Positions 44,707 to 60,727 of a stretch of 64,000 nt of DNA are shown in pieces. Under the pieces are notes generated by a model, which was not told the DNA's origin, made no database searches, and saw nothing but the letters and a program-made list of their open reading frames with translations. Every line of letters begins with the position of its first letter. Position 1 is the stretch's first letter. This DNA comes from Candidatus Omnitrophota bacterium. GTDB taxonomy: Bacteria > Omnitrophota > Gorgyraeia > 2-02-FULL-51-18 > JAGOUK01. The position numbers and the translations under genes were made by a program. Location of the stretch: assembly GCA_047639455.1 (NCBI GenBank), contig JBLINS010000002.1, positions 226 to 64,225 on the forward strand. Direction: 5' to 3'.

Positions 44707-44709
44707 TTC

Positions 44710-45666
44710 ATGAGCATGGGAAGTAAATTAATTTTACTTAGCGGGAATGCAAATCGTTCTTTAGCGCAAGAAATTGCTGAATATTTATCGATTCCATTAT
44801 CTGATGCAATTGTGAGTTCTTTTTCTGAGGGCGAAAGTCGTGTCCAAATTCTGGATGATGTGCGTGGAGCTGATGTTTTTGTCATTCAGCCAACAAGCCC
44901 ACCAGTGAATCAGAATTTGATGGAATTATTAATTATGATGGATGCTCTAAAGAGAGCTTCGGCAGATCGAATCACTTGTGTGCTGCCATATTACGGGTAT
45001 GCACGACAAGATCGCAAAGATAGGCCTCGCGTCCCGATTTCAGCCAAATTAGTAGCCAATTTATTAACTTCCGCTGGGGCTAGCCGCGTCTTAACTATGG
45101 ACTTGCATGCCGGCCAAATCCAGGGATTCTTTGACATACCCCTAGACCATTTGTATGCGGTGAACGTATTCATGGATCACTTTGAACGCTTGAATATTGA
45201 AGATAAAGTTGTTGTGTCACCCGATGTTGGCGGTATCAAAATGGCCCGAGCTTATGCTAAAAAATTCAATGCTGATTTGGCCATTGTGGACAAGCGCCGT
45301 GCAGAAGATGGTGATACAGAGGTGATGAATATCTTAGGTACTGTCAAAGATAAAAATGTCATTATGGTTGATGATATTTGCGCAACAGCAGGCTCATTGT
45401 GTAATGCGGCTGAGGCGGTCAAATTAGCGGGTGCTAAAAAGATTTATGCAGCGATTTCGCATCCCATTCTTTCGGGTCCAGCATATGAGAGAATTGAAAA
45501 AGCGCCTATAGATCAATTGTGTGTGACTAATTCAATTCCGATACCGGAAGATAGACCTTGTGGCAAGATTAAAGTTTTGAGCATAGCGCCCTTATTGGGT
45601 GAAGCAATTCGTAGAATTTATCATTCTGAATCTGTAAGCGGCCTATTTGGTTCGCATATTATCTAG
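44710..45666 (+). CDS. prs: Ribose-phosphate pyrophosphokinase
   Basis: Full-length PRPP synthetase signature (LLSGNANRSLAQEIA...; the DLHAGQIQGFFDIPLDHLYA motif; PRPP-binding loop VDDICATAGSL). Confidence 0.9.
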   Translation: MSMGSKLILLSGNANRSLAQEIAEYLSIPLSDAIVSSFSEGESRVQILDDVRGADVFVIQPTSPPVNQNLMELLIMMDALKRASADRITCVLPYYGYARQDRKDRPRVPISAKLVANLLTSAGASRVLTMDLHAGQIQGFFDIPLDHLYAVNVFMDHFERLNIEDKVVVSPDVGGIKMARAYAKKFNADLAIVDKRRAEDGDTEVMNILGTVKDKNVIMVDDICATAGSLCNAAEAVKLAGAKKIYAAISHPILSGPAYERIEKAPIDQLCVTNSIPIPEDRPCGKIKVLSIAPLLGEAIRRIYHSESVSGLFGSHII

Positions 45667-45692
45667 TTTTTAGTTTAAAAGAGGAGAAAGTA

Positions 45693-46361
45693 ATGGAAAG
45701 AGTTTTAATGGCAGTAAAGGAACGTGCAGTTAGCGGAAAGAGTCCTAATCGCACTATGAGGAATGAAGGCATTGTACCCGGAATTGTGTATCACAAACAT
45801 GAGCCTTCCGTGGCCATCGCATTGAATATAAAAGAATTAACTAAGAACTTAAGAACTGAAGCGGGACGTAATATATTAATCGATTTAAATATTAATGAAT
45901 CGACCGCTAAAGACAATAAGACCGTTGTGGTAAAAGAAATTCAATACCATCCAGTTAGCGGACATATGATTCATGTCGACTTTCATCAAATATCATTAGT
46001 AGACAAAATTAAAGTAGTCGTAGCTGTTTTTGTTACGGGTACTCCAGACGGAGTTAAAAACGAGGGTGGTGTTGTAGAATTGCACGCTCGTGAGCTCGAA
46101 GTCGAATGTTTGCCTACAAGTATGCCAGATCGTATTGAGGTTAAAGTGGATCACTTAAAGCTAAATGAATCTTTGCATGCTAGCGATATAGTGCTACCAG
46201 AGGGTGTGTCTATATTATCTGAGGCCGAAACAGTCATTGCTCAGGTTGTGCTGCCGCATGTTGAAGAAGCAGCAGCGACTGAAGAAGGTGAAGACGCTGC
46301 TCAGCCTGAAGTTATCGGCGCTAAGCCAGATGAAGCTGAGGCTGGAGAAGCTAAGAAATAA
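45693..46361 (+). CDS. rplY: Ribosomal protein L25 (Ctc-form, long)
   Basis: L25/Ctc N-terminal pattern (R...GKSPNRTMRNEGIVPGIVY) and an acidic C-terminal extension. Conserved prs-rplY-pth synteny. Confidence 0.8.
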   Translation: MERVLMAVKERAVSGKSPNRTMRNEGIVPGIVYHKHEPSVAIALNIKELTKNLRTEAGRNILIDLNINESTAKDNKTVVVKEIQYHPVSGHMIHVDFHQISLVDKIKVVVAVFVTGTPDGVKNEGGVVELHARELEVECLPTSMPDRIEVKVDHLKLNESLHASDIVLPEGVSILSEAETVIAQVVLPHVEEAAATEEGEDAAQPEVIGAKPDEAEAGEAKK

Positions 46362-46372
46362 GAATATAGATT

Positions 46373-46993
46373 GTGAAACTAATTGTTGGATTAGGGAATC
46401 CTGGGAAGAAATACTCAGGAACTCGGCATAATGTTGGATTCGAGGTGCTCGATTTTTTTTGCGACACTTTAGACAAGCGACGAATAGTAAAAGCGCAAAA
46501 AATAAAAACAGTGACTCAGGATGGAAATCGCGTACGATTTTCTATTCAAGAATTTGAGTCCAAGGATGGTTTGGATTCGATTGTGGTCATTAAACCCGAA
46601 AATTATATGAATCTTTCGGGCTGGACAGTCAAATTCTGTGTTAATGAATATTTATTAGATGCAGATGACTTTATTATTGTTGCAGATGACATTGCATTGC
46701 CAATTGGCAAAATTAGATTTAGGGAAAAGGGTTCCTCGGGTGGCCAGAAAGGCATCCAATCGATAATTGATGAATTAGGAACTCAGAACTTTAGTCGTTT
46801 GCGAATTGGAATACAGTCTGAAGAGAATGTGGGTGATTTGGCTGATTTTGTTCTAAAGCCTTTTATGCTTAGTGAACATAAGCAAATTAATCAGGTGGTT
46901 GAGACCGCAGCCCTTAGTTTGAATACATGGATTGATCGCGGGATGCCCGCTGCCATGAATGATTTTAATGGGAATATTAACGATAAGGAGTAG
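46373..46993 (+). CDS. pth: Peptidyl-tRNA hydrolase
   Basis: GTG start. N-terminal KLIVGLGNPGKKYSGTRHNVGF is the Pth signature. Confidence 0.85.
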   Translation: MKLIVGLGNPGKKYSGTRHNVGFEVLDFFCDTLDKRRIVKAQKIKTVTQDGNRVRFSIQEFESKDGLDSIVVIKPENYMNLSGWTVKFCVNEYLLDADDFIIVADDIALPIGKIRFREKGSSGGQKGIQSIIDELGTQNFSRLRIGIQSEENVGDLADFVLKPFMLSEHKQINQVVETAALSLNTWIDRGMPAAMNDFNGNINDKE

Positions 46994-46995
46994 AA

Positions 46996-47466
46996 ATGAA
47001 TAAGTATGAGGCAATGTTTGTATTTGTTGGGTCTGCGAGCGCTGACGCTTTAACTAAACAAATGCAAACAGTTCAAACAACTATCACTGAATGTGGTGGA
47101 AAAATAACACAAGTTGATGAATGGGGTAAGAGAAAATTAGCTTACTTAGTTAATAAGGTTGCAGAAGGCCATTACTTACTAGTTTATTTTGAAAGCGAAC
47201 CAAGCGCTATTGATGAAATGAATAAAAAGTATAAGTTCAATACAGACATTATTAAATGCATGATTCTTTCGTATGATCCTCTGCAGGATAAACAAAAAGA
47301 AATCAAGGCTGCAAAAGAAGCTAGAGCTAAGTTTGAAGAAGATGAGCGTGCTGTATCTGAATCTACACCTGCTGCTGCACCTGTTGCTGCTGCATCTGAA
47401 GCCACGCCTGTTGCTGCTGCGTCTGAAGCTACGCCTGAAGCTGCACCTGAAGCGGTTTCGGAGTAA
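46996..47466 (+). CDS. rpsF: Ribosomal protein S6 with a repetitive Ala/Glu/Pro-rich C-terminal tail
   Basis: S6 N-terminal fold sequence (YEAMFVFVGSAS...GGKITQVDEWGKRKLAY). The tail PVAAASEATPVAAASEATPEAAPEA is encoded by a near-perfect DNA tandem repeat (47365-47440). Confidence 0.85.
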   Translation: MNKYEAMFVFVGSASADALTKQMQTVQTTITECGGKITQVDEWGKRKLAYLVNKVAEGHYLLVYFESEPSAIDEMNKKYKFNTDIIKCMILSYDPLQDKQKEIKAAKEARAKFEEDERAVSESTPAAAPVAAASEATPVAAASEATPEAAPEAVSE

Positions 47467-47504
47467 TTTTGAATTTAAATATACTCAACTCATGGAGGTG
47501 ACAC

Positions 47505-47987
47505 ATGGCATCATTTAATAGAGTATTTTTAATGGGTAACTTAACAAGAGACCCAGAATTAAAATACATCCCTAGTGGCAGTGCAGTGGCGACATTTAGT
47601 TTAGCGATTAATAGAGTGTATCGCTTACAAACAGGCGAAAAAAAAGAAGAAACTACTTTTTTACGAATTGTCGTTTGGGGAAAAATGGGTGAAAACTGTG
47701 CGCAATATCTCAAAAAAGGTAGTGCTGCATTTGTTGAGGGGCGAGTTGTAGCTCGTAATTGGGATGCTCCGGATGGTAGTAAACGAACCACCACTGAAGT
47801 CATTGCGACCGCAGTTCAATTTTTAAATAGCAAAACAGGTGTTGCTGTTAGCGAAGAGGGCTATGGTCAATCATCAGCACCATCCCAATCAGCACCAAAA
47901 AAAGAACCGTTAGAAGAAATTTCATTAGACATGCCATCCGAACCGCCTACAGGCAAAGGTGATGGTAGTGATGTGGTTCCATTTTAA
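47505..47987 (+). CDS. ssb: Single-stranded DNA-binding protein
   Basis: OB-fold N-terminus (NRVFLMGNLTRDPELKYIPSGSAVATFSLAINR), a Gly/Ser/Pro-rich linker and a C-terminal ...DVVPF tail. Confidence 0.85.
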   Translation: MASFNRVFLMGNLTRDPELKYIPSGSAVATFSLAINRVYRLQTGEKKEETTFLRIVVWGKMGENCAQYLKKGSAAFVEGRVVARNWDAPDGSKRTTTEVIATAVQFLNSKTGVAVSEEGYGQSSAPSQSAPKKEPLEEISLDMPSEPPTGKGDGSDVVPF

Positions 47988-48017
47988 GTTTGATTAGTTA
48001 ATTACAAGGAGAAGATA

Positions 48018-48281
48018 ATGGCAGTTTTTGCTGGAAAAAAGAAAACAGATTTAAAAGGTAAGCGTAAGAAAAAAGTCTTTCGCAAAAAAGTTTGTAAATT
48101 ATGCGCTGATCGCATAGTTCACATAGATTACAAGGATGCATCTCGCCTTCAGCGTTATATCACTGAAAAAGGCAAGATCATTAGCAGCAAAATTAATGGT
48201 AATTGCGCTAAATGTCAGCGTCGATTAGCGACCGCTATTAAGCGTGCACGTCAAATCGCTTTATTGCCATATTCTGGCTAA
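48018..48281 (+). CDS. rpsR: Ribosomal protein S18
   Basis: [50 protein letters not shown] is the S18 signature. Confidence 0.9.
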
Positions 48282-48365
48282 TATTTACTATTTCAATAGT
48301 CACGTTAGTTGTAATACTTAATAATAGTTCTTAATCTTGAATAATTATTTGTAAAGAGGTGAGAT

Positions 48366-48974
48366 ATGAAGATTGTATTAAATAAAAATATAGAAAACGT
48401 CGGTTCAGTTGGTGACGTTGTTGCTGTTAAGGACGGTTTTGCCAGAAATTTTTTAATTCCTGAGGGATCGGCTGTATTGGCAACACCTGGTAATATCAAA
48501 GTAATCGAACAAGAGAAATCGCAAGAAATTGCCGTTGAGAAAAAAAATCGTGTTGAAGCCGAAAAAATAGCCGAAAAAATTCGCACATTAACATTAAGTC
48601 ATGAAGTTAGTGTGGGTGAAGAGGGTAAGTTGTTTGGCGCTGTTACAGCTATTGATATCGTACAATTATTAGGAGCTGCTGGCGTTGAAGTGGATAAGAA
48701 AAATATCCGTATGGCTAAGTCTATCCGTAAAATTGGTGAATATGATATCGAAGTACGCTGCTATAACAGTGTTAAGGCGATATTTAAATTTTGGGTTTTA
48801 GACAAAGATAAAGATGCTAAAGAAGCTAAGGCAGAAGCTGTAGCATTAGCTGCTAAAGAAGCTGCAGAAATTGCTAAAAAGGCTGCTGAAGCCGAGGCTG
48901 CTGCTAATCCAGAATCTACCGAAGTTGAAGCAGAAGCATCTACGGAAACTGTTGATAAAGCAGAATCTAAATAA
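48366..48974 (+). CDS. rplI: Ribosomal protein L9 with a ~55-aa Ala/Lys/Glu-rich C-terminal extension
   Basis: L9 N- and C-domains are recognisable (MKIVLNKNIENVGSVGDVVAVKDGFARNFLIP...). They are followed by KDKDAKEAKAEAVALAAKEAAEIAKKAAEAEAAANPESTEVEAEAS. Confidence 0.85.
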   Translation: MKIVLNKNIENVGSVGDVVAVKDGFARNFLIPEGSAVLATPGNIKVIEQEKSQEIAVEKKNRVEAEKIAEKIRTLTLSHEVSVGEEGKLFGAVTAIDIVQLLGAAGVEVDKKNIRMAKSIRKIGEYDIEVRCYNSVKAIFKFWVLDKDKDAKEAKAEAVALAAKEAAEIAKKAAEAEAAANPESTEVEAEASTETVDKAESK

Positions 48975-48988
48975 GGACAACTAATTCC

Positions 48989-50368
48989 ATGGATATGGAG
49001 ACTATAGATCCTCCTGTTGTTGGCGGTAAGGTGCCTCCTCAAAATGTGGAAGCTGAATCAGCTGTCTTAGGTTCAGCCTTGCTGGATGATGCTGTTATAC
49101 CACTTATTATTGAGCGCCTTTCAGCTGACGCTTTTTACCACCCGCCTCATCGAAAAATATTCGAAGTCATGGTGAGCTTGTTTGAAGACAATCTCGCTAT
49201 TGACTACATCACTCTCACGGAGCGCTTGTCTAAAGGCGGCTTTGTTGAGCAGGTGGGTGGCGCGGCTTATTTGACGGAATTATCTTCAGCAGTACCTACA
49301 AGTGCTAATGTTGAATATTACATTCAAATCGTGCACGAAAAATCTATCCTCAGACGCTTAATCGCCACTTCTACCAAAATAGCGACTGGTTGTTATGAAA
49401 CAGGCACTAATCCCAGTGAATTATTAGATAGTGCTGAGAAATCGATATTTGAAATAGCCGGCGAGCGCTTTGGCAGTGAAGCTATGGTGCTTAAAGATAT
49501 TGTTCATAATTGCATCGAAAATATTGATCGCCTATATCAGCGCAAAGAAAACATTACTGGTATACCAACAGGCTTTCATCAATTTGATGTACAAACGGCT
49601 GGATTACAGCCTTCAGATTTAATCATTATTGCCGCACGTCCAGCTATGGGTAAGAGTTCTTTCGTAGTTAATATTGCCGAACATGTCGGTATTATAGAGC
49701 AAGTGCCGACAGCTATTTTTAGTTTAGAAATGTCAAAAGAGCAATTAACACAACGTATGCTATGCTCGCAAGCGCGCATTAACGCCCACAAGGTACGCAC
49801 AGGCTTCTTAGCTCAATCTGATTGGCCCAAGTTGACTGAAGCTGCAAATAAATTATCTAAAGCCCCCATCTATATCGACGACTCACCGGGTATATCCGTT
49901 TTGGAACTTAGAGCCAAAGCTAGACGTCTTAAAGCTCAGTTTGATATCCAATTAATTATTTTGGACTATATGCAATTAATGGGTTCAGAAGGGCGCACTG
50001 AGAATCGCCAACAAGAAATTTCGACGATTAGCCGCTCCATGAAGGCATTGGCTAGGGAATTGCACGTGCCTGTAGTTGTGATTAGTCAATTATCTCGAGC
50101 AGTTGAAAGTCGGACTGATCATCGTCCACAATTATCGGATTTGCGTGAATCAGGTTCTATTGAGCAAGATGCAGATGTGGTGATTATGCTGACGCGTGAG
50201 GAATACTATAAACCAACTGAAGAAAATCGCGGTCAGGCCGATGTAATCATAGCTAAACAGCGCAATGGGCCAGTTGGCGATATTAAACTCGCATTCATTA
50301 AAGAGCTCACTCGATTCGAAAATTTGGCTGTGCCAAGATACGATTCAGCTATGCCGAATGAGGTATAG
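48989..50368 (+). CDS. dnaB: Replicative DNA helicase DnaB
   Basis: N-terminal DnaB domain (PPQNVEAESAVLGSALLD) and a RecA-like C-terminus with Walker A (AARPAMGKSSF) and Walker B (LIILDYMQLM). Confidence 0.9.
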   Translation: MDMETIDPPVVGGKVPPQNVEAESAVLGSALLDDAVIPLIIERLSADAFYHPPHRKIFEVMVSLFEDNLAIDYITLTERLSKGGFVEQVGGAAYLTELSSAVPTSANVEYYIQIVHEKSILRRLIATSTKIATGCYETGTNPSELLDSAEKSIFEIAGERFGSEAMVLKDIVHNCIENIDRLYQRKENITGIPTGFHQFDVQTAGLQPSDLIIIAARPAMGKSSFVVNIAEHVGIIEQVPTAIFSLEMSKEQLTQRMLCSQARINAHKVRTGFLAQSDWPKLTEAANKLSKAPIYIDDSPGISVLELRAKARRLKAQFDIQLIILDYMQLMGSEGRTENRQQEISTISRSMKALARELHVPVVVISQLSRAVESRTDHRPQLSDLRESGSIEQDADVVIMLTREEYYKPTEENRGQADVIIAKQRNGPVGDIKLAFIKELTRFENLAVPRYDSAMPNEV

Positions 50369-50485: not shown

Positions 50486-52798
50486 ATGACCAAAAATAAA
50501 ACCGTATTAACGACTTTACTCATTACAATGTGTTTGACGTTAGGATTTACGCACTCAGCCTTAGCTGAGGACGTCAAGGTTGTTTCAGCTATCGAAATAG
50601 AAGGAAATGACACAGTTGCTCAACAAACTATATTGAGCCAAATTCGGACTGTGCCTGGTCGACCCTTAAATCAATCTTTATTAAGCGAAGACTTGAAGCG
50701 TTTGTATAGCTTGGGTTTTTTTCGCGATGTACAAATTCGTCAAGTCGATGATGCAAGTAGTCAAATTATATTACGCTTTTTAGTTAAAGAAAAAGCGATT
50801 CTCGGCAAAATCACTATTGCTGGTAATAGTCAGATTAAAGAAAGGGCCATTCGTGATGTATTGCGAGCTAAAACGGGTGACTTTTTTGACGAACAAACCA
50901 TACGACGGGATATAGACTCGGTTAAAAAGATATATGAGGCCAAAGGTTTTTATGATATCAATGTAACGCATGAATTAGAGTTTGATGACATTAATAATCA
51001 AGCCGAACTTATTATCCGCGTTGATGAAGGTGTTAAGGTCGTGATCAAAAGCATCACTTTTGAGGGCATGAATTGGTTTAAGCCCGCCAAGATTCTTAAA
51101 AGCATAGAAACCAAATCTCGTGGTTGGTATGGCCTTATTAGCGGCTTACTCAAAGAGGATGCGCTTGATATTGACATTCAGCGAATTCGCTCCATGTATG
51201 ACGAAGAAGGTTTTAGTGATGCCAAGATTGGACACCGACTTGATGCAACTGATGAACCTGGCCAGGTTAATTTGATTTTTGAAATTAATGAGGGCCGCCA
51301 ATACCTAGTCGGAACCATTGATTTTCAGGGCAATCAACTATTTTCCAATACTGCCTTAATTTCCGCTTCGGCCACTAAACCTGACTCACCTTTTTCTAGA
51401 CGTGGTTTGCGTCAAAACGTTTCTGATATCCAAGACTTGTATTTTGAAAAAGGGTATATGAATGCGCGCATCATCTTTGATTCGTCCTTTAATGATGAAA
51501 CTGGACGGGTTGATTCGATTTATAAAATAACTGAGAATAGCATCACTTATGTGAATCGCATTAAAATAATGGGTAATACCAAAACAAAGGATATAGTCAT
51601 ACGACGTGAGTTGCGCGTTTATCCAGGTGAGCCGTTTAACGGCGCTTCGCTAAAGCGATCTAAGGAGAGATTGTTTAATTTGGGTTACTTTGAAGAAGTT
51701 CAATTTGACACAGAAGACACGGAGAAAAAAGATCACAAGAACTTAATCGTGTCGATTAAAGAGCAGAAGACCGGCGAATTTAGTTTTGGCGGTGGTTTTA
51801 GTTCTATAGACAAAGCGTTAGGGTTTGTTCAAATACGCCAACGTAATTTTGATCATGGTAATTACCCATCGTTCACAGGTGCTGGAGAAGATTTGTCCGT
51901 TAGATTGCAACTAGGTACTGTTCGGTCACAGGGCGAATTATCCTGGACTGATCCATGGTTTATGGGGCATCCTTTTTCGCTTGGATTTGATTTATTCAAA
52001 CGCGAGTCTTCTCGAACCCGTAGTTCTGGACTTTTCTTTGATGAAGATAGGCAGGGTGGAAGACTGCGCATTGGTAAAGAATTAAGTGATTTTGATATTG
52101 TGAACGCATCGTATGCATATGAACAGGTTGATATTTCTGATGTGCCTGATGACGCATCTGCGGATTTGCAAGCTGAAGAAGGTGAAACTAATGTTTCTAG
52201 ATTGGCGCTGAACCTGACACGCGATAAACGTGACAATCGCTTTGTGCCAACAAATGGATACCTTCTATCAGGTAGCAGCGAGCTTGCTGGTGGTTTTTTG
52301 GCTGGTGATCGTGATTTTTGGAAGATGAGCGGATTAGCTGCTGGTTATTGGCCGCATAGAGGCGATAATGTCATTGAGCTCAAACTACGCGGCGGAATTT
52401 CTGACGCTTATGATGATTCCGAAAAAGTGCCGATATTTGAAAGATATTATGCTGGTGGTGCCAATACAATACGTGGTTACAAAGAGCGCCGGGTTGGCCC
52501 TAGAGACACTGGCACGGGAGATCCAATTGGTGGCGAAGCTTATTGGGTGGCCAATGCTGAATACACATTTCCAATTGTAGAAGGCGTGCTTAAGGCTGCT
52601 GCATTTTATGATATTGGTGCAGTTGATGCCACAATTGATGACTTTGGAGCAGGGGACATAGCACAGGGCATAGGTATGGGCGTGCGCATCAAAACTCCTA
52701 TTGGCCCTGTCAAAATTGATGCTGGGTTTCCGATAAATGACGTTGAGGGTGAGGATAAAGAAGTGCGTTTCTATTTTAATATGAGCCGTGGTTTTTAG
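50486..52798 (+). CDS. bamA: Outer-membrane protein assembly factor BamA
   Basis: Signal peptide, POTRA-like repeats and a C-terminal beta-barrel ending in an aromatic residue (…FYFNMSRGF). Confidence 0.85.
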   Translation: MTKNKTVLTTLLITMCLTLGFTHSALAEDVKVVSAIEIEGNDTVAQQTILSQIRTVPGRPLNQSLLSEDLKRLYSLGFFRDVQIRQVDDASSQIILRFLVKEKAILGKITIAGNSQIKERAIRDVLRAKTGDFFDEQTIRRDIDSVKKIYEAKGFYDINVTHELEFDDINNQAELIIRVDEGVKVVIKSITFEGMNWFKPAKILKSIETKSRGWYGLISGLLKEDALDIDIQRIRSMYDEEGFSDAKIGHRLDATDEPGQVNLIFEINEGRQYLVGTIDFQGNQLFSNTALISASATKPDSPFSRRGLRQNVSDIQDLYFEKGYMNARIIFDSSFNDETGRVDSIYKITENSITYVNRIKIMGNTKTKDIVIRRELRVYPGEPFNGASLKRSKERLFNLGYFEEVQFDTEDTEKKDHKNLIVSIKEQKTGEFSFGGGFSSIDKALGFVQIRQRNFDHGNYPSFTGAGEDLSVRLQLGTVRSQGELSWTDPWFMGHPFSLGFDLFKRESSRTRSSGLFFDEDRQGGRLRIGKELSDFDIVNASYAYEQVDISDVPDDASADLQAEEGETNVSRLALNLTRDKRDNRFVPTNGYLLSGSSELAGGFLAGDRDFWKMSGLAAGYWPHRGDNVIELKLRGGISDAYDDSEKVPIFERYYAGGANTIRGYKERRVGPRDTGTGDPIGGEAYWVANAEYTFPIVEGVLKAAAFYDIGAVDATIDDFGAGDIAQGIGMGVRIKTPIGPVKIDAGFPINDVEGEDKEVRFYFNMSRGF

Positions 52799-52848
52799 TA
52801 TTTGTAATTTTAATTGTTTAGTCAATCTGTACGTAAAAGGAGAACAAA

Positions 52849-53346
52849 ATGAAAACAAAGAGTATATTTTTAGTATTTGCAATCACGATTAGTATAGCAT
52901 TCGCCATGAATTCATCAGCCGCAGCACAAACGGTGGGCTATGTGAATTTATCAAAAGTATTTGACGCATATAATAAAACAAAAGAATTCGACGCTAATTT
53001 ACAAACGGAAGCTGAAGCAAAGCGTGGCGAAAGAGACGCTATTGTTGAGGGTATTAAGAGTTTGAGAGACGACTTGGAATTATTAAGCGCTGACGGCCGT
53101 GCCGAGAAGCAAGGTGAAGTTGATGCACGCGTACAAGAGCTGCAAGCCTTTGATAATGACAGTCGTTTGGAATTAAGGCGCAAAAGAGATACTATGATTC
53201 GCGATATCCTTAAAGAAATTGATGATATCATTCAAGAGTACGGCAAAGAAAATGGATATGATTACATCTATAACGACCGTATTCTTTTATACAAAACCGA
53301 TCAAAGCGATTTGACTGAGACCATTACCGAAATTCTAAATGGCTAA
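52849..53346 (+). CDS. skp: Periplasmic chaperone Skp (OmpH)
   Basis: Signal peptide and the OmpH-like N-terminus VGYVNLSKVFDAYNKTKEFDANLQTEAEAK. Position between bamA and lpxD. Confidence 0.7.
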   Translation: MKTKSIFLVFAITISIAFAMNSSAAAQTVGYVNLSKVFDAYNKTKEFDANLQTEAEAKRGERDAIVEGIKSLRDDLELLSADGRAEKQGEVDARVQELQAFDNDSRLELRRKRDTMIRDILKEIDDIIQEYGKENGYDYIYNDRILLYKTDQSDLTETITEILNG

Positions 53347-54385
53347 TTCCAGTTCCACTGCCTCAATCATATCGATTTCTTTAGCAGAAATTAATCAAAT
53401 GGTTGGCGGCGAATCCGCCGACTTTGAAGCCATTCATATCACCGGAGCATGCAGTCTTCAAGACGCAGGCTCCGGTGATATTGCTTATGCCAGTGGCAAG
53501 GCTCAAAATGCTTTATTAAAGCGAACTCAGGCCAGTGCCGTCATCGTTGCATTGGATTCGGAGTATTCAGCCAAACCAGTCATACGAGTCGCTAACCCAG
53601 CCAAAGCTTTTTTAGCCATCTTACGTTTGTGGCATACAGGCACAGAAAAATTAGCAAAAGAGGGCATCCATAAGAGCGCCGTTGTTGATGAAACCGCCAA
53701 AATTGGTCAGCGCGTATTTTTGGGTCCCGGTGTGATTGTCGATGAGAATGCTCAGATTGGCGATGGTTGCACGATATTAGCCAATACCTATATTGGTGCT
53801 AACGTTACGCTAAAAAATGATGTTCTAATATTTGAAAATGTCACTATAAGTGAAGACACAATCATTGATCAATTAGTAACCATACATGCAGGCGTCGTTA
53901 TTGGTTCGGATGGATTCGGCTATGAGAGAATTGATGATGTTTATATTAAAGTACCTCAGCGTGGTAATGTGTTGATTGAACAAAATGTTGAAATAGGTGC
54001 TAATACCTGCATAGATCGTGCCCGTTTTGGAACGACACGCATTAAGCAGGGGACCAAAATCGATAACTTGGTCCAAATAGGTCATAATGTTACCATTGGC
54101 GAAAGATGTCTTTTGGTATCCCAAGTCGGCATTGCTGGTTCGTCCGAACTGGGCGATGACGTAGCACTTGGCGGACAAGTCGGTGTTTCGGGTCATATTA
54201 AAATTGGCCCGCGCACTCAAATAGCGGCTCAGAGCGGCGCTTATACCAATATCGGGTCTGATCAAATCTTATTAGGTAGCCCGCCAAGGCCTTTTCGTAA
54301 AGAAAAAGAAATCATTGTTTATACATCTCGCCTACCGCAGTTATTCAAAGAAGTGCGTGAAATTAAAAAAAAGCTTTCTGAGTAA
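53339..54385 (+). CDS. lpxD: UDP-3-O-acylglucosamine N-acyltransferase
   Basis: LpxD N-terminal domain followed by extended hexapeptide repeats. Synteny skp-lpxD. Confidence 0.85.
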   Translation: MANSSSTASIISISLAEINQMVGGESADFEAIHITGACSLQDAGSGDIAYASGKAQNALLKRTQASAVIVALDSEYSAKPVIRVANPAKAFLAILRLWHTGTEKLAKEGIHKSAVVDETAKIGQRVFLGPGVIVDENAQIGDGCTILANTYIGANVTLKNDVLIFENVTISEDTIIDQLVTIHAGVVIGSDGFGYERIDDVYIKVPQRGNVLIEQNVEIGANTCIDRARFGTTRIKQGTKIDNLVQIGHNVTIGERCLLVSQVGIAGSSELGDDVALGGQVGVSGHIKIGPRTQIAAQSGAYTNIGSDQILLGSPPRPFRKEKEIIVYTSRLPQLFKEVREIKKKLSE

Positions 54386-54388
54386 TAA

Positions 54389-55243
54389 ATGCGACTTCAA
54401 CGTACAATTCGGGAATCGGGTCAAATATTAGGTTTAGGCGTTCATTCGGGTGAAGAGTGTTGTCTTAAGTTTAAGCCGCTACCAGAAAATTCGGGCATTG
54501 TTTTTTGTCGCAAAGATTTGGCAGAAGAAATGACTTGGGTCGTTGGTCAGCCGGGATTTGAGACTCCATTAAATGGAGATCTTCGTCAGACTACCCTTGG
54601 TTCCGATACAGGTTCTATTAAAACTATTGAACATTTGATGGCCGCACTCTGGGCTTTGGGTATATGTAATCTATCTATAGAGGTAATGGGTGGCGAAATA
54701 CCTATCCTGGACGGTAGCAGCCTTGATTTTATTAATGCGTTCAATGATATGGGAATAATAGATCAGACTGTAACTAAGCCGGAGTTCGTCTTAAAAGAAC
54801 CTTTATTTGTGTCTGGAAAGCAGTCTGCAATATTGGCCTTACCGAGCGCCGGGTTTAGCATTACCTATACACTAGATTACCCGCACCCACAATTAAAGGC
54901 GATGACATTAGCTATCAATATAAATCCTGAAGAATTTATTGAAAAAATCGCGCCAGCTAGGACATTTTGTACAAAAGATGAGGCCCAGCAACTTTTGGAT
55001 TTAGGCTATGGTAAGGGTGCGAATACTAACAATACATTAGTCCTGGCTGAAGATGGTCCAATTGAGAATGTGTTGCGGTTTGACAATGAGCCGGTGCGTC
55101 ACAAGATATTGGATTTGGTAGGCGATTTAAGCCTATTAGGGTATGATTTTAAAGCCCAAATTATTGCGATACGAAGTGGCCATGCATTGAATCATGCATT
55201 GCGAGCAAAAATACTTAAAACGAGTCAACTACAAGCTAATTGA
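54389..55243 (+). CDS. lpxC: UDP-3-O-acyl-N-acetylglucosamine deacetylase
   Basis: LpxC signatures (RQTTLGSDTGSIKTIEHLMAAL; KILDLVGDLSLLGYDFKAQIIAIRSGHALNH). Confidence 0.85.
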   Translation: MRLQRTIRESGQILGLGVHSGEECCLKFKPLPENSGIVFCRKDLAEEMTWVVGQPGFETPLNGDLRQTTLGSDTGSIKTIEHLMAALWALGICNLSIEVMGGEIPILDGSSLDFINAFNDMGIIDQTVTKPEFVLKEPLFVSGKQSAILALPSAGFSITYTLDYPHPQLKAMTLAININPEEFIEKIAPARTFCTKDEAQQLLDLGYGKGANTNNTLVLAEDGPIENVLRFDNEPVRHKILDLVGDLSLLGYDFKAQIIAIRSGHALNHALRAKILKTSQLQAN

Positions 55244-55275
55244 AATTTGATAAATTTATTTTAAGGGAGTGAACA

Positions 55276-55737
55276 ATGGCTGAGAGTACATTATTTGATC
55301 CATATCAAATGCCCATGGATCAAGAAGGTATAAAAAAAATAATTCCGCATCGCGACCCTTTTCTTTTGGTTGATCGAATCACTTCTTTAACTGAAGATAG
55401 CGTGATTGGTGAAAAAACATTAAGCGGTGAAGAGGATTTTTTTAGAGGCCATTTTCCAAGCAAGCCAGTCATGCCGGGCGTCTTAATGATTGAGGCATTG
55501 GCGCAAGTTACAGGCGTTATGATTTGTTCACGGCCTGATTTTCGTAATCGCATGGGATTTTTTGCATCCATTAATAAAGTTAAGTTCAGAGAAATGGTTA
55601 GTCCTGGCAGCACTTTGCGCCTCGAATCTATTAAAGTTCGTGAGAAGAAAATGTTTTATATTGCGCAAGCAAGGGCAATGTTGGGCGACAAAATGGCATG
55701 TGAAGCTGAAATTATGCTGTATATGGATGTACAATGA
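55276..55737 (+). CDS. fabZ: 3-hydroxyacyl-ACP dehydratase FabZ
   Basis: Hot-dog-fold signature (ILPHRDPFLLVDRI...; HFPSKPVMPGVLMIEALAQV). Confidence 0.9.
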   Translation: MAESTLFDPYQMPMDQEGIKKIIPHRDPFLLVDRITSLTEDSVIGEKTLSGEEDFFRGHFPSKPVMPGVLMIEALAQVTGVMICSRPDFRNRMGFFASINKVKFREMVSPGSTLRLESIKVREKKMFYIAQARAMLGDKMACEAEIMLYMDVQ

Positions 55738-56531
55738 TTGCTCACTCTACCGCGATTATTTCTCCCAAAGCACGTATTGATGATGATGTTGAGGTAGGTC
55801 CTTTTTGCATTATTGGTGATGACGCCGTTATTGGTTCTGGAACCAAAATCGAGTCCCACGCGGTTATAGAGGGGCATACTACCATTGGTAAAAATAACAT
55901 TTTGGGCGTTGGTTCTGTTATTGGCGGTTTGCCGCAAACAAAATCTTATGATGGTGAAGAATCTTATGTGAAGATTGGTGATTCTAATCATATCCGCGAA
56001 TATGTCACTATTCATCGCGGTAGCCACGGCACTCGTACCACAAAAATAGGTGATTCAAATTATCTTATGGCTTACTCTCATTTAGGACATGATGTTCAAG
56101 TGGGTAATCACGCAGTTGTAGCTAATGGTGCGATGATGGGCGGCCATGTAACAATTGGGGATAACGCCATTGTTGGCGGGCTTGTGGGCGTGCATCAATT
56201 TCAGCGCATTGGACGGTTTGCTATGGTTGGAGCGATGAGTCGTATTAGTTTTGATGTGCCACCTTTCTCGATTGTTGACGGTAATCCGAATGCCTTAGGT
56301 GGTGTTAACACAACTGGACTAAAGCGTGCAAATTTTTCGGTGGATGACATTCGCCAAATTCGAAATAGTTTTAAGCAACTATTTTTTTCTGACAAATTAT
56401 TCAAAGATGCGGTTGCTGAGGCCAAAATCAAGCAAGCTGATTGTGTGTATATGAAGGAATTATTGGATTTTATTAAGGATACCAAGAGATCAGTGATTAC
56501 ACGTAGAAAATCTAGTTCACATGCTGCATAA
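55734..56531 (+). CDS. lpxA: Acyl-ACP--UDP-GlcNAc O-acyltransferase
   Basis: N-terminal IHSTAIISPKARIDDDVEVGPFCIIG, hexapeptide repeats and a C-terminal helical domain. Confidence 0.9.
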   Translation: MIAHSTAIISPKARIDDDVEVGPFCIIGDDAVIGSGTKIESHAVIEGHTTIGKNNILGVGSVIGGLPQTKSYDGEESYVKIGDSNHIREYVTIHRGSHGTRTTKIGDSNYLMAYSHLGHDVQVGNHAVVANGAMMGGHVTIGDNAIVGGLVGVHQFQRIGRFAMVGAMSRISFDVPPFSIVDGNPNALGGVNTTGLKRANFSVDDIRQIRNSFKQLFFSDKLFKDAVAEAKIKQADCVYMKELLDFIKDTKRSVITRRKSSSHAA

Positions 56532-57378
56532 TTTATTTAAATTCAAATTAAGCGCTTTACCGAATCCCAAAAAACATTGCTTGGGTGTCGTCGCAGCTTC
56601 AGGAAAATTGCCTATCCAAATTCTGGAAAATGCGAAGTCCCAGGGATATAGACTAATTGTATTGGGTGTTGAATTAAAGGATGATCGAGTTGAGGCGCTG
56701 GCAGATGAATATCTAGCGGTTAAAATGACTGAGGGTCAAAAGGCTTTGGATTATTTGGTCACCGCTGGCGTCAAACACTTAGTTTTATGCGGCAAATTTC
56801 CAAAAACGGATTTTGCTAGTCATTATAAGCCGGATTCTTTGATTGCTGGTACATTGAAAAAAACTCTGAACGGCAAAGGTGATGATGGTATTTTAAAAGC
56901 AATATCAGGCTTATTGCGATTAAAGGGCATAAAGGTTTTGCCAATACTACCTTTTTTAATCCATGCTGCTGCACCTAAGGGTGTTTTGACCAAAACAAAA
57001 CCAACCCAAGCGCAATTCACTGATTTGGCATTTGGTTTTCGTATGGCCAAAAAGATTGGTCGATTAGATATTGGTCAAACGGTGGTGATTAAAAATGAAG
57101 TTGTTTTGGCGGTAGAAGCTATTGAGGGCACCGATGCTACCATTAGGCGCATTAATGAATTTAACTCAGAAGGTGCAGCGGTTGTAAAAGTCTCTAAGCC
57201 ACAACAAGAATTAAGATTTGATATGCCCGTGATTGGCTTGAGCACTATAGAAAGTTTGATTGCAGCCAAATGTGCTTGCATTGGTATTGAGGCTGGTAAG
57301 ACGTTATTAGTGGATCAAAGCGACGTTATTGAATTGGCTGACAAAAATCAAATTTGTGTAGTAGGGATTACGCAATGA
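56521..57378 (+). CDS. lpxI: LpxI-type UDP-2,3-diacylglucosamine hydrolase (DUF1009)
   Basis: N-terminal LGVVAASGKLPIQIL and LVLCGKFPKTDF resemble the LpxI/DUF1009 motifs. Located directly after lpxA. Confidence 0.6.
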   Translation: MLHNLFKFKLSALPNPKKHCLGVVAASGKLPIQILENAKSQGYRLIVLGVELKDDRVEALADEYLAVKMTEGQKALDYLVTAGVKHLVLCGKFPKTDFASHYKPDSLIAGTLKKTLNGKGDDGILKAISGLLRLKGIKVLPILPFLIHAAAPKGVLTKTKPTQAQFTDLAFGFRMAKKIGRLDIGQTVVIKNEVVLAVEAIEGTDATIRRINEFNSEGAAVVKVSKPQQELRFDMPVIGLSTIESLIAAKCACIGIEAGKTLLVDQSDVIELADKNQICVVGITQ

Positions 57379-58067
57379 CAGGCAGAGTATTAATTATTGG
57401 GCCCAAAGATGCAGATATGGATGCATTATTGGAATACGTAAAAAAGGAATCGCATTTTATACCTCGGCTTGTTGATTTATCAGACATCAATGAGGAAGCG
57501 ATATTAGCCTTTAAGCCGGACATCATTATTTTTAATGCAGGCGCAAGTCCTGAGACGGCAATTAAATTCTTTGATCGCTTTATGAAACTTGATTCCCTTA
57601 AAGACTTGCCCTGTCTAATTGCAGTGGAAGAAGATAAAATTATTTCGGCATCCAATTCATTGCCCATGGGTGTAGCTGATATTGTTGCTAAGCCAATACG
57701 ACCTTTTGAAGTTGTTGCCAAGATGCAATTGCTATATCGCAAGACACATAGAATATCAGACACATCTATAATTCGCTCTGCTGAATTAGAAATTGATATA
57801 TCTAAATACGAAGTTAGGGTGAGTGGCAAAAAAGTTGATTTAACATATACGGAGTATGAATTATTAAAATTCTTGGCTAGTAATCCAGGCCAGGTGTTTG
57901 GGCGGGACCTATTATTGAATAAGGTTTGGGGCTATGATTATTTTGGTGGCGCCAGAACTGTTGATGTTCATGTTAGGCGCTTGAGATCAAAGTTAGAAAC
58001 TAATACTGGCAGATATATTGAAACTATTCGACATATCGGATATAAATTTGTGCATGAAGAAGAGTGA
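57375..58067 (+). CDS. Atypical OmpR-family response regulator (receiver domain with Asn at the phospho-acceptor position)
   Basis: C-terminal winged-helix (LTYTEYELLKFLASNPGQVFGRDLLLNKVWG...RTVDVHVRRLRSKLE). The N-terminal receiver-like domain keeps the K-P motif (AKPIRPFE) but has ...PDIIIFNAG where the phosphorylatable Asp normally sits. Its ATG overlaps the lpxI stop (ATGA). Confidence 0.75.
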   Translation: MTGRVLIIGPKDADMDALLEYVKKESHFIPRLVDLSDINEEAILAFKPDIIIFNAGASPETAIKFFDRFMKLDSLKDLPCLIAVEEDKIISASNSLPMGVADIVAKPIRPFEVVAKMQLLYRKTHRISDTSIIRSAELEIDISKYEVRVSGKKVDLTYTEYELLKFLASNPGQVFGRDLLLNKVWGYDYFGGARTVDVHVRRLRSKLETNTGRYIETIRHIGYKFVHEEE

Positions 58068-58082
58068 GTAGCGGAGTGAATC

Positions 58083-59471
58083 ATGGGTAAGAAAATAATA
58101 AAAGCAACGAATAAAAAAAGTAATCTCAAACTTAAAGAAGATGCTATTAGATTTTTGGTTAACAAAGCACGTCAAGGTGATGTCAAATTCATACGCATTT
58201 GGTTCACTGACATACTTGGGGCGTTAAAGAGTTTTGCGATCACAATAGACGTATTAGAAAATTCTTTAATGGATGGTATTGGCATTGATGGATCAGCCAT
58301 AGAGAGTTTTGCAAGATCTGAAGAACACGATATGGTTGCGATTCCGGATATAAGTACCTTTGAAATTCTGCCGTGGAGACCTAGTGAAAACGCGGTTGCG
58401 CGTATGTTTGCTGATATTCATTATGTGAACAAAAAACCTTTTGAGGGTGACCCGCGTCATTGCCTAAAAAATCAATTGAAGTTGGCTAAGAGTCTAGGTT
58501 ATACATTTTATGTTGCTCCAGAGATTGAGTATTTTTATTTCAAATCTTCAACTAACCCTGAGCCTGTTGATAATGGAGGTTATTTTGATTTAACACCGCT
58601 CGATACGGGCAGTGATTTGAGGCGGCAGACGGTTTTGATGCTCGAAGCTATGGGTATAAGCGTGCACTCTAGTCATCATGAAGTTGCTCCTAGCCAACAC
58701 GAAATTGGCTTAAGACATATGGATGCCATGACTATGGCGGATAATGTCATGACCTATCGACTCGTAGTGAAAGAAATTGCTTTAAAACACGGTTTGCATG
58801 CCACATTTATGCCTAAACCTATTGAAAAGCAAAATGGTAATGGCATGCATATTCACCAGTCGCTATTTGGTGTTTCGAGTAAGGGTGAACACAATGCTTT
58901 CTATGACGCTAAAGATAAATACAGCTTATCAAAAGTCGGACGCAGTTACGTAGCCGGCCTTCTCAAGCATGCCCGCGAAATGGCAATAGTCACAAATCAA
59001 TGGGCTAATTCATACAAACGTCTTGTGAGTGGATATGAGGCTCCAACTAATATACTTTGGGGCCAAAGAAACCGCTCGGCATTAGTTCGCATTCCTATGT
59101 ACCAAAAGGGCAAAGAAAATTCCATGCGCGCAGAGTTTCGTTCCCCTGACCCAGCCTGTAACCCATACCTCGTTTTTAGCGTTATGTTAGCAGCGGGTCT
59201 AAGAGGTATCCAAAAGTCCTATAAATTGGAAGATGCCTTAGAAGAAGACGTAACTCAATGGTCAGCGGATAAGAAGAAACGAACAGGAGTGACGGAGTTG
59301 CCAACTAATTTGGGCGAAGCAATTCGCGTGGCTGAAGATTCTGCTTTTTTACGTGAGGCTTTGGGCGAACACATCACAACCAGCTTAATTGCCAATAAAA
59401 AAATTGAGTGGGACCAATACTGCCGCCATATCTCCCAATACGAAATTCAAAAAGACTTACCTAACCTATAA
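58083..59471 (+). CDS. glnA: Glutamine synthetase
   Basis: GS signatures (GIDGSAIESFAR...; KPIEKQNGNGMHIHQSLF; the downstream ATP/glutamate-binding regions). Confidence 0.85.
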   Translation: MGKKIIKATNKKSNLKLKEDAIRFLVNKARQGDVKFIRIWFTDILGALKSFAITIDVLENSLMDGIGIDGSAIESFARSEEHDMVAIPDISTFEILPWRPSENAVARMFADIHYVNKKPFEGDPRHCLKNQLKLAKSLGYTFYVAPEIEYFYFKSSTNPEPVDNGGYFDLTPLDTGSDLRRQTVLMLEAMGISVHSSHHEVAPSQHEIGLRHMDAMTMADNVMTYRLVVKEIALKHGLHATFMPKPIEKQNGNGMHIHQSLFGVSSKGEHNAFYDAKDKYSLSKVGRSYVAGLLKHAREMAIVTNQWANSYKRLVSGYEAPTNILWGQRNRSALVRIPMYQKGKENSMRAEFRSPDPACNPYLVFSVMLAAGLRGIQKSYKLEDALEEDVTQWSADKKKRTGVTELPTNLGEAIRVAEDSAFLREALGEHITTSLIANKKIEWDQYCRHISQYEIQKDLPNL

Positions 59472-59494: not shown

Positions 59495-59630
59495 TACGTC
59501 ACAACAATTCGTCACCGCCTGCCGGCAGGCGAGGCGCGCGTAGGCCGGTTACACTCTAGTTCCACCGGCATTAGGTGTCTCGCTGTGAGGCTCGCACCGT
59601 CACAGCAACGCGGCAATCTAAGCTAAATAT
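59495..59630. repeat. Dispersed repeat-related element with internal palindrome CGCCTGCCGGCAGGCG, between convergent glnA and lpxB
   Basis: The tail GTCACAGCAACGCGGCAATCTAAG resembles the ...GCAGCGCCGTGGCAATCTTAG tails at 22207-22225 and 33603-33620. Palindrome at 59517-59532. Confidence 0.4.
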
Positions 59631-60727
59631 GTAAGTATTTCGTCCGCCGCACGATCACAAGCGCCAACTTCCCCTAGCAACAACACGGAGGCTTTTAAAT
59701 CAGATTTAACAGCCTCATACTTAGTGCCATCCTCAAGCCAATCATTAACGATGGAAGTTATATTGGGTGTAGTGAAGTTTTCTTGAACTAATTCAGGTAC
59801 GATTTCTTTATTAGCTAATATGTTAGGAAGGCCGATGTATTTAGTTTTGATGAGCGGACGCATGATTAAGGAATCAAAAGAGCGCATTTTGTAAACTATA
59901 ACAATAGGTAAGTGATGTACGGCGCATTCTAATGTGACCGTTCCGGAGCTAGCAATACCTATATGTGACTGTTGAATATGATCTGCAGCCCGACCTTCGA
60001 CTAATTCTATGCCATTGGAGACAAAATCCTTATATAGAGCTGCTTTGAGGGCCGGCGCTTTGAGGACTTTGAATATAAGCTCAGGGTGTTTATTTCTAAG
60101 TGCATTAACTGTTTCAATTAAAGTTGCTTGATGGATATGTAATTCATTAGTTCGAGATCCGGGTAGGATTAAGATTTGTTTTACATTAGTGATTGGCTTA
60201 GTATCAGGTATAGCCACTTGATGTTCGGGCATGTCCTTAATCGGATGACCTACAAAGGTGGCGGGGCAATTATGTTTTTTATAAAACTCTTCTTCAAATT
60301 TGAATATAACTAAACATTTTTTAAAAAGTCGACGCATTAAATGAATACGTTTTTGCTTCCAAGCCCAAACTTGGGGACAAATATAATAAATCATGGGAAT
60401 ATTTAATTTGCTAAATTTTTTTGCTAAGCGTAGGTTGAATCCGGGATTATCAATAAAAATAATTAAATCAGGCTTCACTTCCGCCACCTGTCGTTCCACG
60501 TCTTTAAACAATTTAAGGAATTGCGGCAATAGTTTAAGCACAGGCACTATTCCAGTGGCATGCACATGACCTACATCGATAAAAGTTTTGGGGTGGCATG
60601 CTTTGAGGTTGTCACTACCCATGGCATGAATTTCTAATTCGGGCTGCACTTTTTGTAACGCTAAAAATAAATTAGCACCATGGATATCGCCTGAAGATTC
60701 CCCAGTGATGATGAATATTTTTTTCAT
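59618..60727 (-). CDS. lpxB: Lipid-A-disaccharide synthase
   Basis: N-terminal KIFIITGESSGDIHGANL and overall LpxB pattern. Confidence 0.85.
   Translation of the reverse strand: MKKIFIITGESSGDIHGANLFLALQKVQPELEIHAMGSDNLKACHPKTFIDVGHVHATGIVPVLKLLPQFLKLFKDVERQVAEVKPDLIIFIDNPGFNLRLAKKFSKLNIPMIYYICPQVWAWKQKRIHLMRRLFKKCLVIFKFEEEFYKKHNCPATFVGHPIKDMPEHQVAIPDTKPITNVKQILILPGSRTNELHIHQATLIETVNALRNKHPELIFKVLKAPALKAALYKDFVSNGIELVEGRAADHIQQSHIGIASSGTVTLECAVHHLPIVIVYKMRSFDSLIMRPLIKTKYIGLPNILANKEIVPELVQENFTTPNITSIVNDWLEDGTKYEAVKSDLKASVLLLGEVGACDRAADEILTYLA

Follow-up and report, generated by a model that had tools for sequence, protein, structure and literature searches.

An aspartate-less, GlnR-like orphan regulator gene at the junction of lipid A and nitrogen-assimilation genes in Omnitrophota

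Organization of the lpxI-regulator-glnA locus

We analyzed a 64,000-nucleotide stretch of contig JBLINS010000002.1 from Candidatus Omnitrophota bacterium (hereafter the window), in which a gene for an OmpR/PhoB-type regulator lies between lpxI and the glutamine synthetase gene glnA. The regulator gene occupies positions 57375-58067 of the plus strand and is an open reading frame (ORF) encoding a 230-residue protein with the Pfam domain Trans_reg_C. As described in a first-pass annotation of this DNA, its ATG overlaps the TGA stop codon of lpxI in the tetranucleotide ATGA (57375-57378), and glnA starts at 58083 after a 15-nt spacer (58068-58082). This spacer carries a GGAG ribosome-binding site and is too short for a promoter. 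The ATG at 57375 was favored over an in-frame TTG at 57354 because the homologs all begin with MTG or MVG. Both flanking genes lie on the plus strand and are well defined: lpxI (56521-57378) matches Pfam LpxI_N and LpxI_C, and glnA (58083-59471) encodes a type I glutamine synthetase of 462 residues that matches Pfam Gln-synt_N and Gln-synt_C as well as NCBIfam TIGR00653 (452 bits against a cut-off of 429).

Upstream of lpxI on the same strand lie ORFs corresponding to bamA (50486-52798), skp (52849-53346), lpxD (53339-54385), lpxC (54389-55243), fabZ (55276-55737), and lpxA (55734-56531). All six names were taken from the Pfam-labeled gene order of relatives, supplemented for bamA and lpxA by tblastn matches of the window proteins. 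The nine plus-strand genes from bamA to glnA (50486-59471) are separated by gaps of at most 50 nt or joined by short overlaps, and we presume that the bamA-skp-lpxD-lpxC-fabZ-lpxA-lpxI string (50486-57378) is an envelope operon with the regulator gene at its end. The regulator gene and glnA form the 3' end of this string and face the convergent lpxB (59618-60727, minus strand; Pfam LpxB), which represents the other end of the lipid A cluster in an arrangement kept in relatives. A Gfo/Idh/MocA oxidoreductase gene lies with lpxB on the minus strand, convergent to glnA, followed by msbA on the plus strand. The earlier description of a nitrogen gene and its candidate regulator inside the lipid A operon therefore needs refinement: the two genes do lie within the cluster, but at the 3' end of the plus-strand string rather than in the middle of one transcript. 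A promoter and terminator scan of the 48-64 kb region returned fewer sites than shuffled sequence and was uninformative for operon boundaries, and neither amtB nor a PII gene was found in the window.

The receiver domain has lost the phosphorylation site

The regulator has the architecture of the OmpR/PhoB family. Its AlphaFold2 (AF2) model (pLDDT 85) comprises five beta-alpha units followed by a winged helix. The first part, residues 1-125 (57375-57749, plus strand), adopts the (beta-alpha)5 receiver fold, and the second, residues 151-225 (57825-58049, plus strand), is the DNA-binding domain recognized as Trans_reg_C (E 1e-27), with the recognition helix RTVDVHVRRLRSKL at residues 194-207. 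Foldseek matched the model to full-length OmpR-family structures (KdpE, PhoP, GlnR, and others) with a probability of 1.0. At the sequence level, Trans_reg_C was the only match in a Pfam scan of the protein, Response_reg remaining below detection. A profile of residues 1-128 searched against 1.8 billion representatives retrieved about 50,000 receiver-containing proteins, which establishes the N-terminal domain as receiver-homologous; these were generic and multi-receiver proteins only, and no specific outgroup emerged.

Inspection of the catalytic positions revealed extensive loss. Asn54 (codon AAT, 57534-57536) occupies the phospho-acceptor position, as the first-pass annotation had proposed: it pairs with the acceptor Asp of MtrA in the phmmer alignment and with that of PhoB, OmpR, WalR, and MtrA in a MAFFT alignment, and lies at the C-terminal end of the predicted strand beta3 in the AF2 model. 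In these comparisons the MtrA sequence came from the phmmer result, and those of PhoB, OmpR, and WalR were entered manually. The same alignment confirmed the conserved Lys106-Pro107 (57690-57695), of which the lysine is the only catalytic-site residue still present. The accompanying claim that the acidic pocket is retained had to be abandoned: Gly9-Pro10 (57399-57404) stand at the acidic 'DD' positions and Val84 at the Thr/Ser position, while Asp12 and Asp14 are close to the end of beta1 but out of register with the DD pair. With Gly9, Pro10, Asn54, and Val84 at these sites, the domain lacks all but one of the five residues that make a receiver catalytic. The protein thus agrees with the definition of an aspartate-less, or pseudo-, receiver as a domain with recognizable receiver homology lacking the D site (PMC12632262). 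Its residues support the earlier assignment to an atypical, phosphorylation-independent OmpR type, one that cannot use canonical Asp phosphorylation.

The gene also appears to be an orphan. No histidine kinase domain (HisKA, HATPase_c) was found in window ORFs of at least 150 residues, including the two giant ORFs described below, and no histidine kinase occurs among the called genes in flanks of 4 kb (L112) to 8 kb on each side of the regulator gene in eight related contigs. This agrees with the earlier statement that no kinase is encoded nearby, although a more distant gene might encode one. Database labels might nevertheless point to a PhoB/PhoP-type phosphate regulator, or to a generic response regulator whose kinase is encoded elsewhere, since the top NCBIfam match is PhoB (sub-threshold, 122 bits against a cut-off of 296) and some family members carry the JGI label 'alkaline phosphatase synthesis response regulator PhoP'. 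We consider such an identity highly improbable: the missing catalytic residues make phosphotransfer from a kinase implausible, and neither the surroundings of the gene in the window nor its flanks in relatives show a kinase, pst, or pho gene. The PhoB/PhoP annotation itself was rejected, as no NCBIfam equivalog model reaches its cut-off.

A phylum-wide family in Omnitrophota

Protein searches recovered at least 120 clusters of homologs with 41-100% identity and lengths of 203-233 residues (nearly all 221-233), including the exact window protein as recorded from a Candidatus Omnitrophota metagenome-assembled genome. Their named members are Omnitrophota or Omnitrophica, and nearly all are without a Response_reg match. 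Among 120 aligned members, 99 have Asn at the acceptor position, 17 have Ser, 3 have Asp, and 1 has Val, so that 117 of the 120 carry Asn, Ser, or Val. The first DD position is mostly Gly (101; Ser in 16) and the second mostly Asp (100; Glu in 9, Pro in 3); the T position is hydrophobic in all members, 109 members have Arg and 10 have Lys at the K position, and Pro107 is invariant. In an alignment of 38 sequences, 42 columns of the DNA-binding domain are invariant; such very strong conservation indicates a functional protein under selection and not a decaying gene.

The old active site is ringed by conserved residues that are specific to the family: Asn54-Pro55-Lys56 in the main clade, Asp/Glu85-Glu86, Arg106, and Arg109. 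Where the main clade has Pro55-Lys56 and most of the family Arg106, the window protein has Ala55-Gly56 and Lys106. Loss of the acceptor Asp is specific to the lpxI-linked family, because all non-Omnitrophota members recovered in a wider motif scan (see below) keep it, as do the Omnitrophota proteins of L007, L011, and L057. These three represent a second, high-GC Omnitrophota group of GlnR-like regulators, in which the Asp is kept and lpxI does not adjoin the gene. The window regulator, in sum, belongs to an undescribed, phylum-wide Omnitrophota family that is most like actinobacterial GlnR.

Relationship to GlnR and other OmpR-family regulators

The best phmmer matches among solved structures in the PDB were GlnR of Saccharopolyspora erythraea (8HIG, E 3e-33; 8HML, 9e-29) and of Mycobacterium tuberculosis (8HIH, 2e-31); among the best 60 of the 74 sequences above threshold, the next family was MtrA (E 4e-25), behind GlnR by eight orders of magnitude. 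The identities of 8HIH and 8HML as GlnR structures follow PMC10235972, and that of 8HIG its PDB title. The DNA-binding domain of S. erythraea GlnR shares 49% identity with that of the window protein and superimposes with an rmsd of 1.5-1.7. Of the 14 DNA-contact residues of M. tuberculosis GlnR, 12 are identical (T151, R171, W179, R188, T189, H193, R195, R196, R198, T211, R213, and Y217); the two differences are K153, replaced by Thr, and N214, replaced by His in the window protein and retained as Asn in most of the family. The contact residues fit a TGTnAC-like half-site. A curated GlnR model against which the regulator could be scored does not exist in NCBIfam.

A scan of GTDB genomes with the two most conserved motifs of the family's DNA-binding domain retrieved mostly GlnR of Actinomycetota, together with proteins from Chloroflexota and one from Armatimonadota; few of the loci listed were from Omnitrophota. 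Among the matches listed, 26 of 80 loci have a GlnA-like match within 7 kb, and about 21 of those 26 carry glnA immediately upstream on the same strand; the latter belong to Acidimicrobiia and related Actinomycetota, with one Solirubrobacterales and one Armatimonadota. This glnA-upstream order (e.g., L009, L021, L024, L026, L032, L033, L042, and L047) is the reverse of that in Omnitrophota. In a Dehalococcoidia locus (L028), glnA lies 1.5 kb downstream of the GlnR-like gene, and the protein of L074 has what we take to be a Streptomyces-type GlnR N-terminus. A neighbor-joining tree joined the motif-scan relatives and the Omnitrophota family in one group in 100/100 bootstraps against PhoB, MtrA, WalR, and OmpR.

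The resemblance to actinobacterial GlnR (Streptomyces coelicolor, Amycolatopsis mediterranei, M. tuberculosis, and S. erythraea) extends over several levels. GlnR is likewise an orphan OmpR/PhoB-type regulator with a non-canonical receiver pocket, its recognition helix and DNA-contact residues are nearly identical, and the genes linked to the Omnitrophota regulator, namely glnA, amtB, and glnK, represent the core GlnR regulon. However, the receiver halves are too diverged for a phmmer alignment, and the host here is a Gram-negative-type Omnitrophota in which the gene stands at the end of a lipid A/BamA operon. GlnR also keeps the acceptor Asp, whereas the window protein has Asn and the family Asn or Ser. 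According to a review, this residue (Asp50) is unphosphorylated in GlnR and is needed, with Arg52 and Thr9, for homodimerization. At the corresponding positions the window protein has Asn54, Gly56, and Gly9, and the main clade Asn, Lys, and Gly.

ChxR of Chlamydia and HP1043 of Helicobacter provide a second point of comparison, sharing with the window protein an OmpR-type output domain, a receiver without catalytic residues, and the lack of a partner kinase. Aspartate-less OmpR-family regulators of this kind are presumed to be constitutive dimers on direct repeats (PMC12632262). Yet these two act on other regulons in other genomic settings, and we found no specific sequence relationship: the HP1043 structures 2hqr and 2k4j (E 2e-9 to 5e-11) rank far behind GlnR, MtrA, VbrR, and RegX3, and ChxR is not among the best 60 of the 74 PDB matches. 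Of the comparison with ChxR, HP1043, and GlnR drawn in the first-pass annotation, the part on GlnR is supported in that GlnR proteins are the closest solved relatives, with the qualification that the family has replaced the Asp that GlnR keeps; a specific link to ChxR and HP1043 is not supported.

Conservation of the gene neighborhood

For contextual analysis, we compiled eight distinct contigs from protein look-ups and 22 metagenome loci from a scan for the main-clade pseudo-receiver. All eight look-up contigs show the order dnaB-bamA-skp-lpxD-lpxC-fabZ-(lpxA)-lpxI-regulator, and lpxI lies directly 5' of the regulator gene in 8/8 of them and in 19/19 metagenome loci having upstream sequence. 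The spacing of the two genes varies: the ATGA overlap recurs in an 89%-identical relative (L112), the genes abut in L003, and a 19-nt gap separates them in L087. The order lpxI-regulator-glnA, whose conservation the first-pass annotation had proposed to check, is kept in Omnitrophota relatives down to 43-50% identity. On the downstream side, glnA follows directly in 11 distinct loci (the window, L004, L086-L089, L099-L101, L110, and L112), exbB-exbD-glnA follows in one locus, and amtB in about nine; most of these nine also have glnK (PII), exbB-exbD frequently precede amtB, and in one case glnA comes next. The only clear case without a nitrogen gene is L003, where ispH is next to the regulator gene and the lpxI link is kept. 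With lpxI upstream and nitrogen genes downstream, the regulator gene thus marks the junction of the envelope string and nitrogen-assimilation genes, L003 excepted.

Several further features of these neighborhoods were observed. The genes exbB-exbD (MotA/TolQ/ExbB and ExbD/TolR families) separate the regulator gene from the nitrogen genes in L001 (8694-9706), L094-L097, and L108; where they are inserted, the regulator gene becomes internal to the envelope gene string. Two small conserved ORFs for membrane proteins (about 57-87 residues, e.g., MGGTTKGSGWALFWFLLGF...) occur in L092 (4794-5240) and L094 (about 2180-2510), between a GlnR-box-like promoter and a signal-peptide-bearing amtB, and seem to be additional amtB-operon genes that have escaped annotation. 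The glnA of L088 (8703-10059) is broken into overlapping ORFs of 263 and 205 residues, the result of a frameshift or pseudogene or else of faulty assembly. L087, L092, L099, and L101 are without an lpxA homolog between fabZ and lpxI, the rest of the cluster being intact. The window stretch 43438-50368, ahead of bamA and with genes on its strand, carries glmU, prs, rplY, pth, rpsF, ssb, rplI, and dnaB, placing the regulator gene within a long housekeeping syntenic block that in relatives runs on to rpsB-tsf-pyrH-frr.

The constancy of lpxI raises the alternative that the protein acts as an envelope regulator on the outer-membrane and lipid A operon containing its own gene, whether by control or by autoregulation, and has nitrogen genes as neighbors by synteny only. 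The gene stays at lpxI even when exbB-exbD are inserted behind it, in several lineages placing these Tol/Exb-type envelope genes before any nitrogen gene, or when nitrogen genes are absent as in L003. Adjacency alone is nonetheless weak evidence, because synteny among these genomes covers the entire region from dnaB to frr. We regard this alternative as unlikely, given that the bamA-lpx string and the sequence upstream of it, in the window as in relatives, yielded no operator-like direct repeat, and that both the closest characterized relatives and the only conserved cis-element, described next, point to nitrogen genes.

A candidate operator upstream of amtB

Upstream of amtB in relatives, we identified a direct repeat of the form G(A/T)AAY-n6-GTAAC, followed 9-10 nt on by a -10-like hexamer TAnnCT and then, after 25-45 nt (longer before signal-peptide-type amtB), by GGAGG and the start codon. 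Searched for as G[AT]AA[CT]N6GTAAC, the repeat has 9 matches in 94.5 kb from 21 metagenome loci, two of which (L094 and L095) are near-duplicates, against 0.64 expected from block shuffles, and 0/1000 shuffles reach 9. Seven of the nine matches are placed ahead of amtB, shortly after the end of the regulator gene or of exbD, and have the same orientation as the gene. Two sites had played no part in deriving the pattern and were found by it: a triple half-site ahead of the second amtB in L097, and a site 44 nt past the regulator stop codon in L098. In the high-GC Omnitrophota locus L007, a GAAAA-n6-GTGAC sequence occurs about 100 nt upstream of an amtB that is 6 kb away. An NtcA-type palindrome (GTA-n8-TAC) had also been entertained for the amtB element and was rejected by inspection because the half-sites are direct rather than inverted repeats.

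The layout resembles that of a pho box, in which the sites of PhoB-type activators take the place of the -35 element, some 10 nt away from the -10. As with PhoB, two direct-repeat half-sites phased at 11 bp stand in place of the -35, about 10 nt before the -10 hexamer, and most DNA-contact residues are common to PhoB and the window regulator. PhoB, however, is phosphorylated by its partner PhoR and recognizes CTGTCAT half-sites, whereas here there is no kinase, no acceptor Asp, and no pho context. A further correspondence is found with the actinobacterial GlnR box, which consists of an a-site (gTnAc) and a b-site (GaAAC) separated by n6 in a 5+6+5 unit (PMC10235972). The half-sites (GTnAC, GAAAC), the 6-nt spacer, and the 5+6+5 unit of the Omnitrophota candidate operator are the same.

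The window itself yielded no such element. GTNAC-n6-GAAAC with one mismatch gave 6 matches in it against 9.5 expected, and is therefore not enriched; the Omnitrophota-derived pattern gave 5 against 11 expected; and a position weight matrix of the repeat gave no match of 9 or more. With no repeat in the 64 kb and a 15-nt spacer that leaves no room for a promoter, glnA here is most simply taken to be co-transcribed with the regulator gene at the tail of the envelope operon.

A probable nitrogen regulator and its possible mechanism

We interpret the regulator as an orphan, phosphorylation-independent OmpR/PhoB-type factor that corresponds in Omnitrophota to actinobacterial GlnR and has nitrogen assimilation under its control, a reading to which we assign a probability of roughly 0.6. 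The GlnR-like nature of the protein as a nitrogen regulator is reasonably supported. Its control of the adjacent glnA, a further suggestion of the first-pass annotation, is not supported directly: nothing in the window shows it, glnA following at 15 nt in a stretch without an operator-like repeat.

We infer a mechanism of four steps. The regulator gene would be the final conserved gene in the transcript of the bamA-to-lpxI string, probably with translational coupling, and would thereby be steadily expressed. The pseudo-receiver, unable to take a phosphoryl group, would serve as a dimerization or regulatory module, probably through its alpha4-beta5-alpha5 face. The winged helices would then bind head-to-tail on G(A/T)AAC direct repeats with half-sites 11 bp apart; situated at the -35 place, 9-10 nt before the -10 hexamer, the bound dimer would recruit RNA polymerase as PhoB and GlnR do. 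The targets would be amtB-glnK-type promoters, plus glnA wherever it has its own promoter. For the window, the operators of the regulator would have to lie elsewhere in the genome.

Several observations weigh against this interpretation. The invariant partner of the regulator gene is lpxI and not a nitrogen gene, L003 being the case in which the latter is missing altogether. The Asp that GlnR requires for dimerization is absent. The shared DNA-contact residues are no proof of GlnR-like specificity, because PhoB and MtrA share most of them. The neighbor-joining tree described above had only four sequences as outgroups, of which three were entered manually, and an ingroup collected by motif. The window has neither an operator-like repeat nor separate promoter space for glnA, and that the lpxI-linked regulator reads the amtB-upstream repeat we infer only from adjacency and family resemblance.

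A more elaborate possibility is that the protein couples nitrogen status, through the glutamine needed for UDP-GlcNAc, to envelope synthesis and controls both gene sets. Its input would be the remodeled pocket or PII: the pseudo-receiver would have been rebuilt as a sensor of 2-oxoglutarate, glutamine, or PII, with Asn-Pro-Lys, Asp/Glu-Glu, and Arg-Pro-x-Arg around the old phosphorylation pocket forming the site, and the coupling to outer-membrane synthesis would follow from the gene being hard-wired into the BamA/lipid A operon. The position of the gene at a conserved junction of both gene sets across the phylum, the presence of glmU within the same syntenic block, and the family-specific residues ringing the former active site are consistent with such a role. 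The proposal is speculative, however, in that no cis-elements were found on the envelope side and the pocket is not uniform, as the Ala55-Gly56 and Lys106 of the window protein illustrate; we judge it improbable, marginally more so than a purely envelope-directed function.

Other features of the window

The convergent spacer between glnA and lpxB (59500-59612) is GC-rich and hairpin-rich in a genome of 40% GC and contains the perfect palindrome CGCCTGCCGGCAGGCG. Its plus strand is predicted to fold at -53 kcal/mol (z -2.9), and the 89%-identical relative L112 retains no more of it than the ends and a single hairpin. An Rfam scan of the whole window, this spacer included, returned no RNA family, and the spacer is probably a bidirectional terminator. 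The window also contains two giant ORFs: one at 3-7697 encodes 2564 residues with a NUDIX domain (residues 1735-1825) as its sole Pfam match, and the other, at 33741-41081, encodes 2446 residues for which the Pfam scan gave no match.

Implications for nitrogen control in Omnitrophota

Reviews treat GlnR as an actinobacterial regulator (PMC10235972 among them). The full-text literature accessible to us, whose coverage is incomplete, yielded no paper linking GlnR to Omnitrophota, and a query combining GlnR and OmpR with Chloroflexi, Armatimonadetes, Omnitrophica, and Dehalococcoides surfaced no GlnR paper among the matches listed. What is new here is that a GlnR-like orphan regulator occurs outside Actinomycetota, that its receiver is aspartate-less, and that its gene keeps a constant position at the tail of the lipid A operon. 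GlnR-type nitrogen control, described as an actinobacterial specialty, would thereby be found with a like operator grammar in an uncultivated phylum of Gram-negative type, and relatives linked to glutamine synthetase genes are also present among Chloroflexota and Armatimonadota. These occurrences suggest a far greater age and a far wider distribution than hitherto assumed for the GlnR lineage and its connection to glnA and amtB.

The phylum-wide placement of a nitrogen regulator gene at the lipid A operon also deserves attention; if nitrogen status were indeed coupled to outer-membrane synthesis, this would to our knowledge be a regulatory link not described in any bacterium. For organisms without genetics, the repeat and -10 hexamer before amtB provide a prediction of the regulon. 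The Omnitrophota branch, having dispensed with the dimerization Asp of GlnR, lends itself naturally to asking how receivers without the Asp stay active or are switched.

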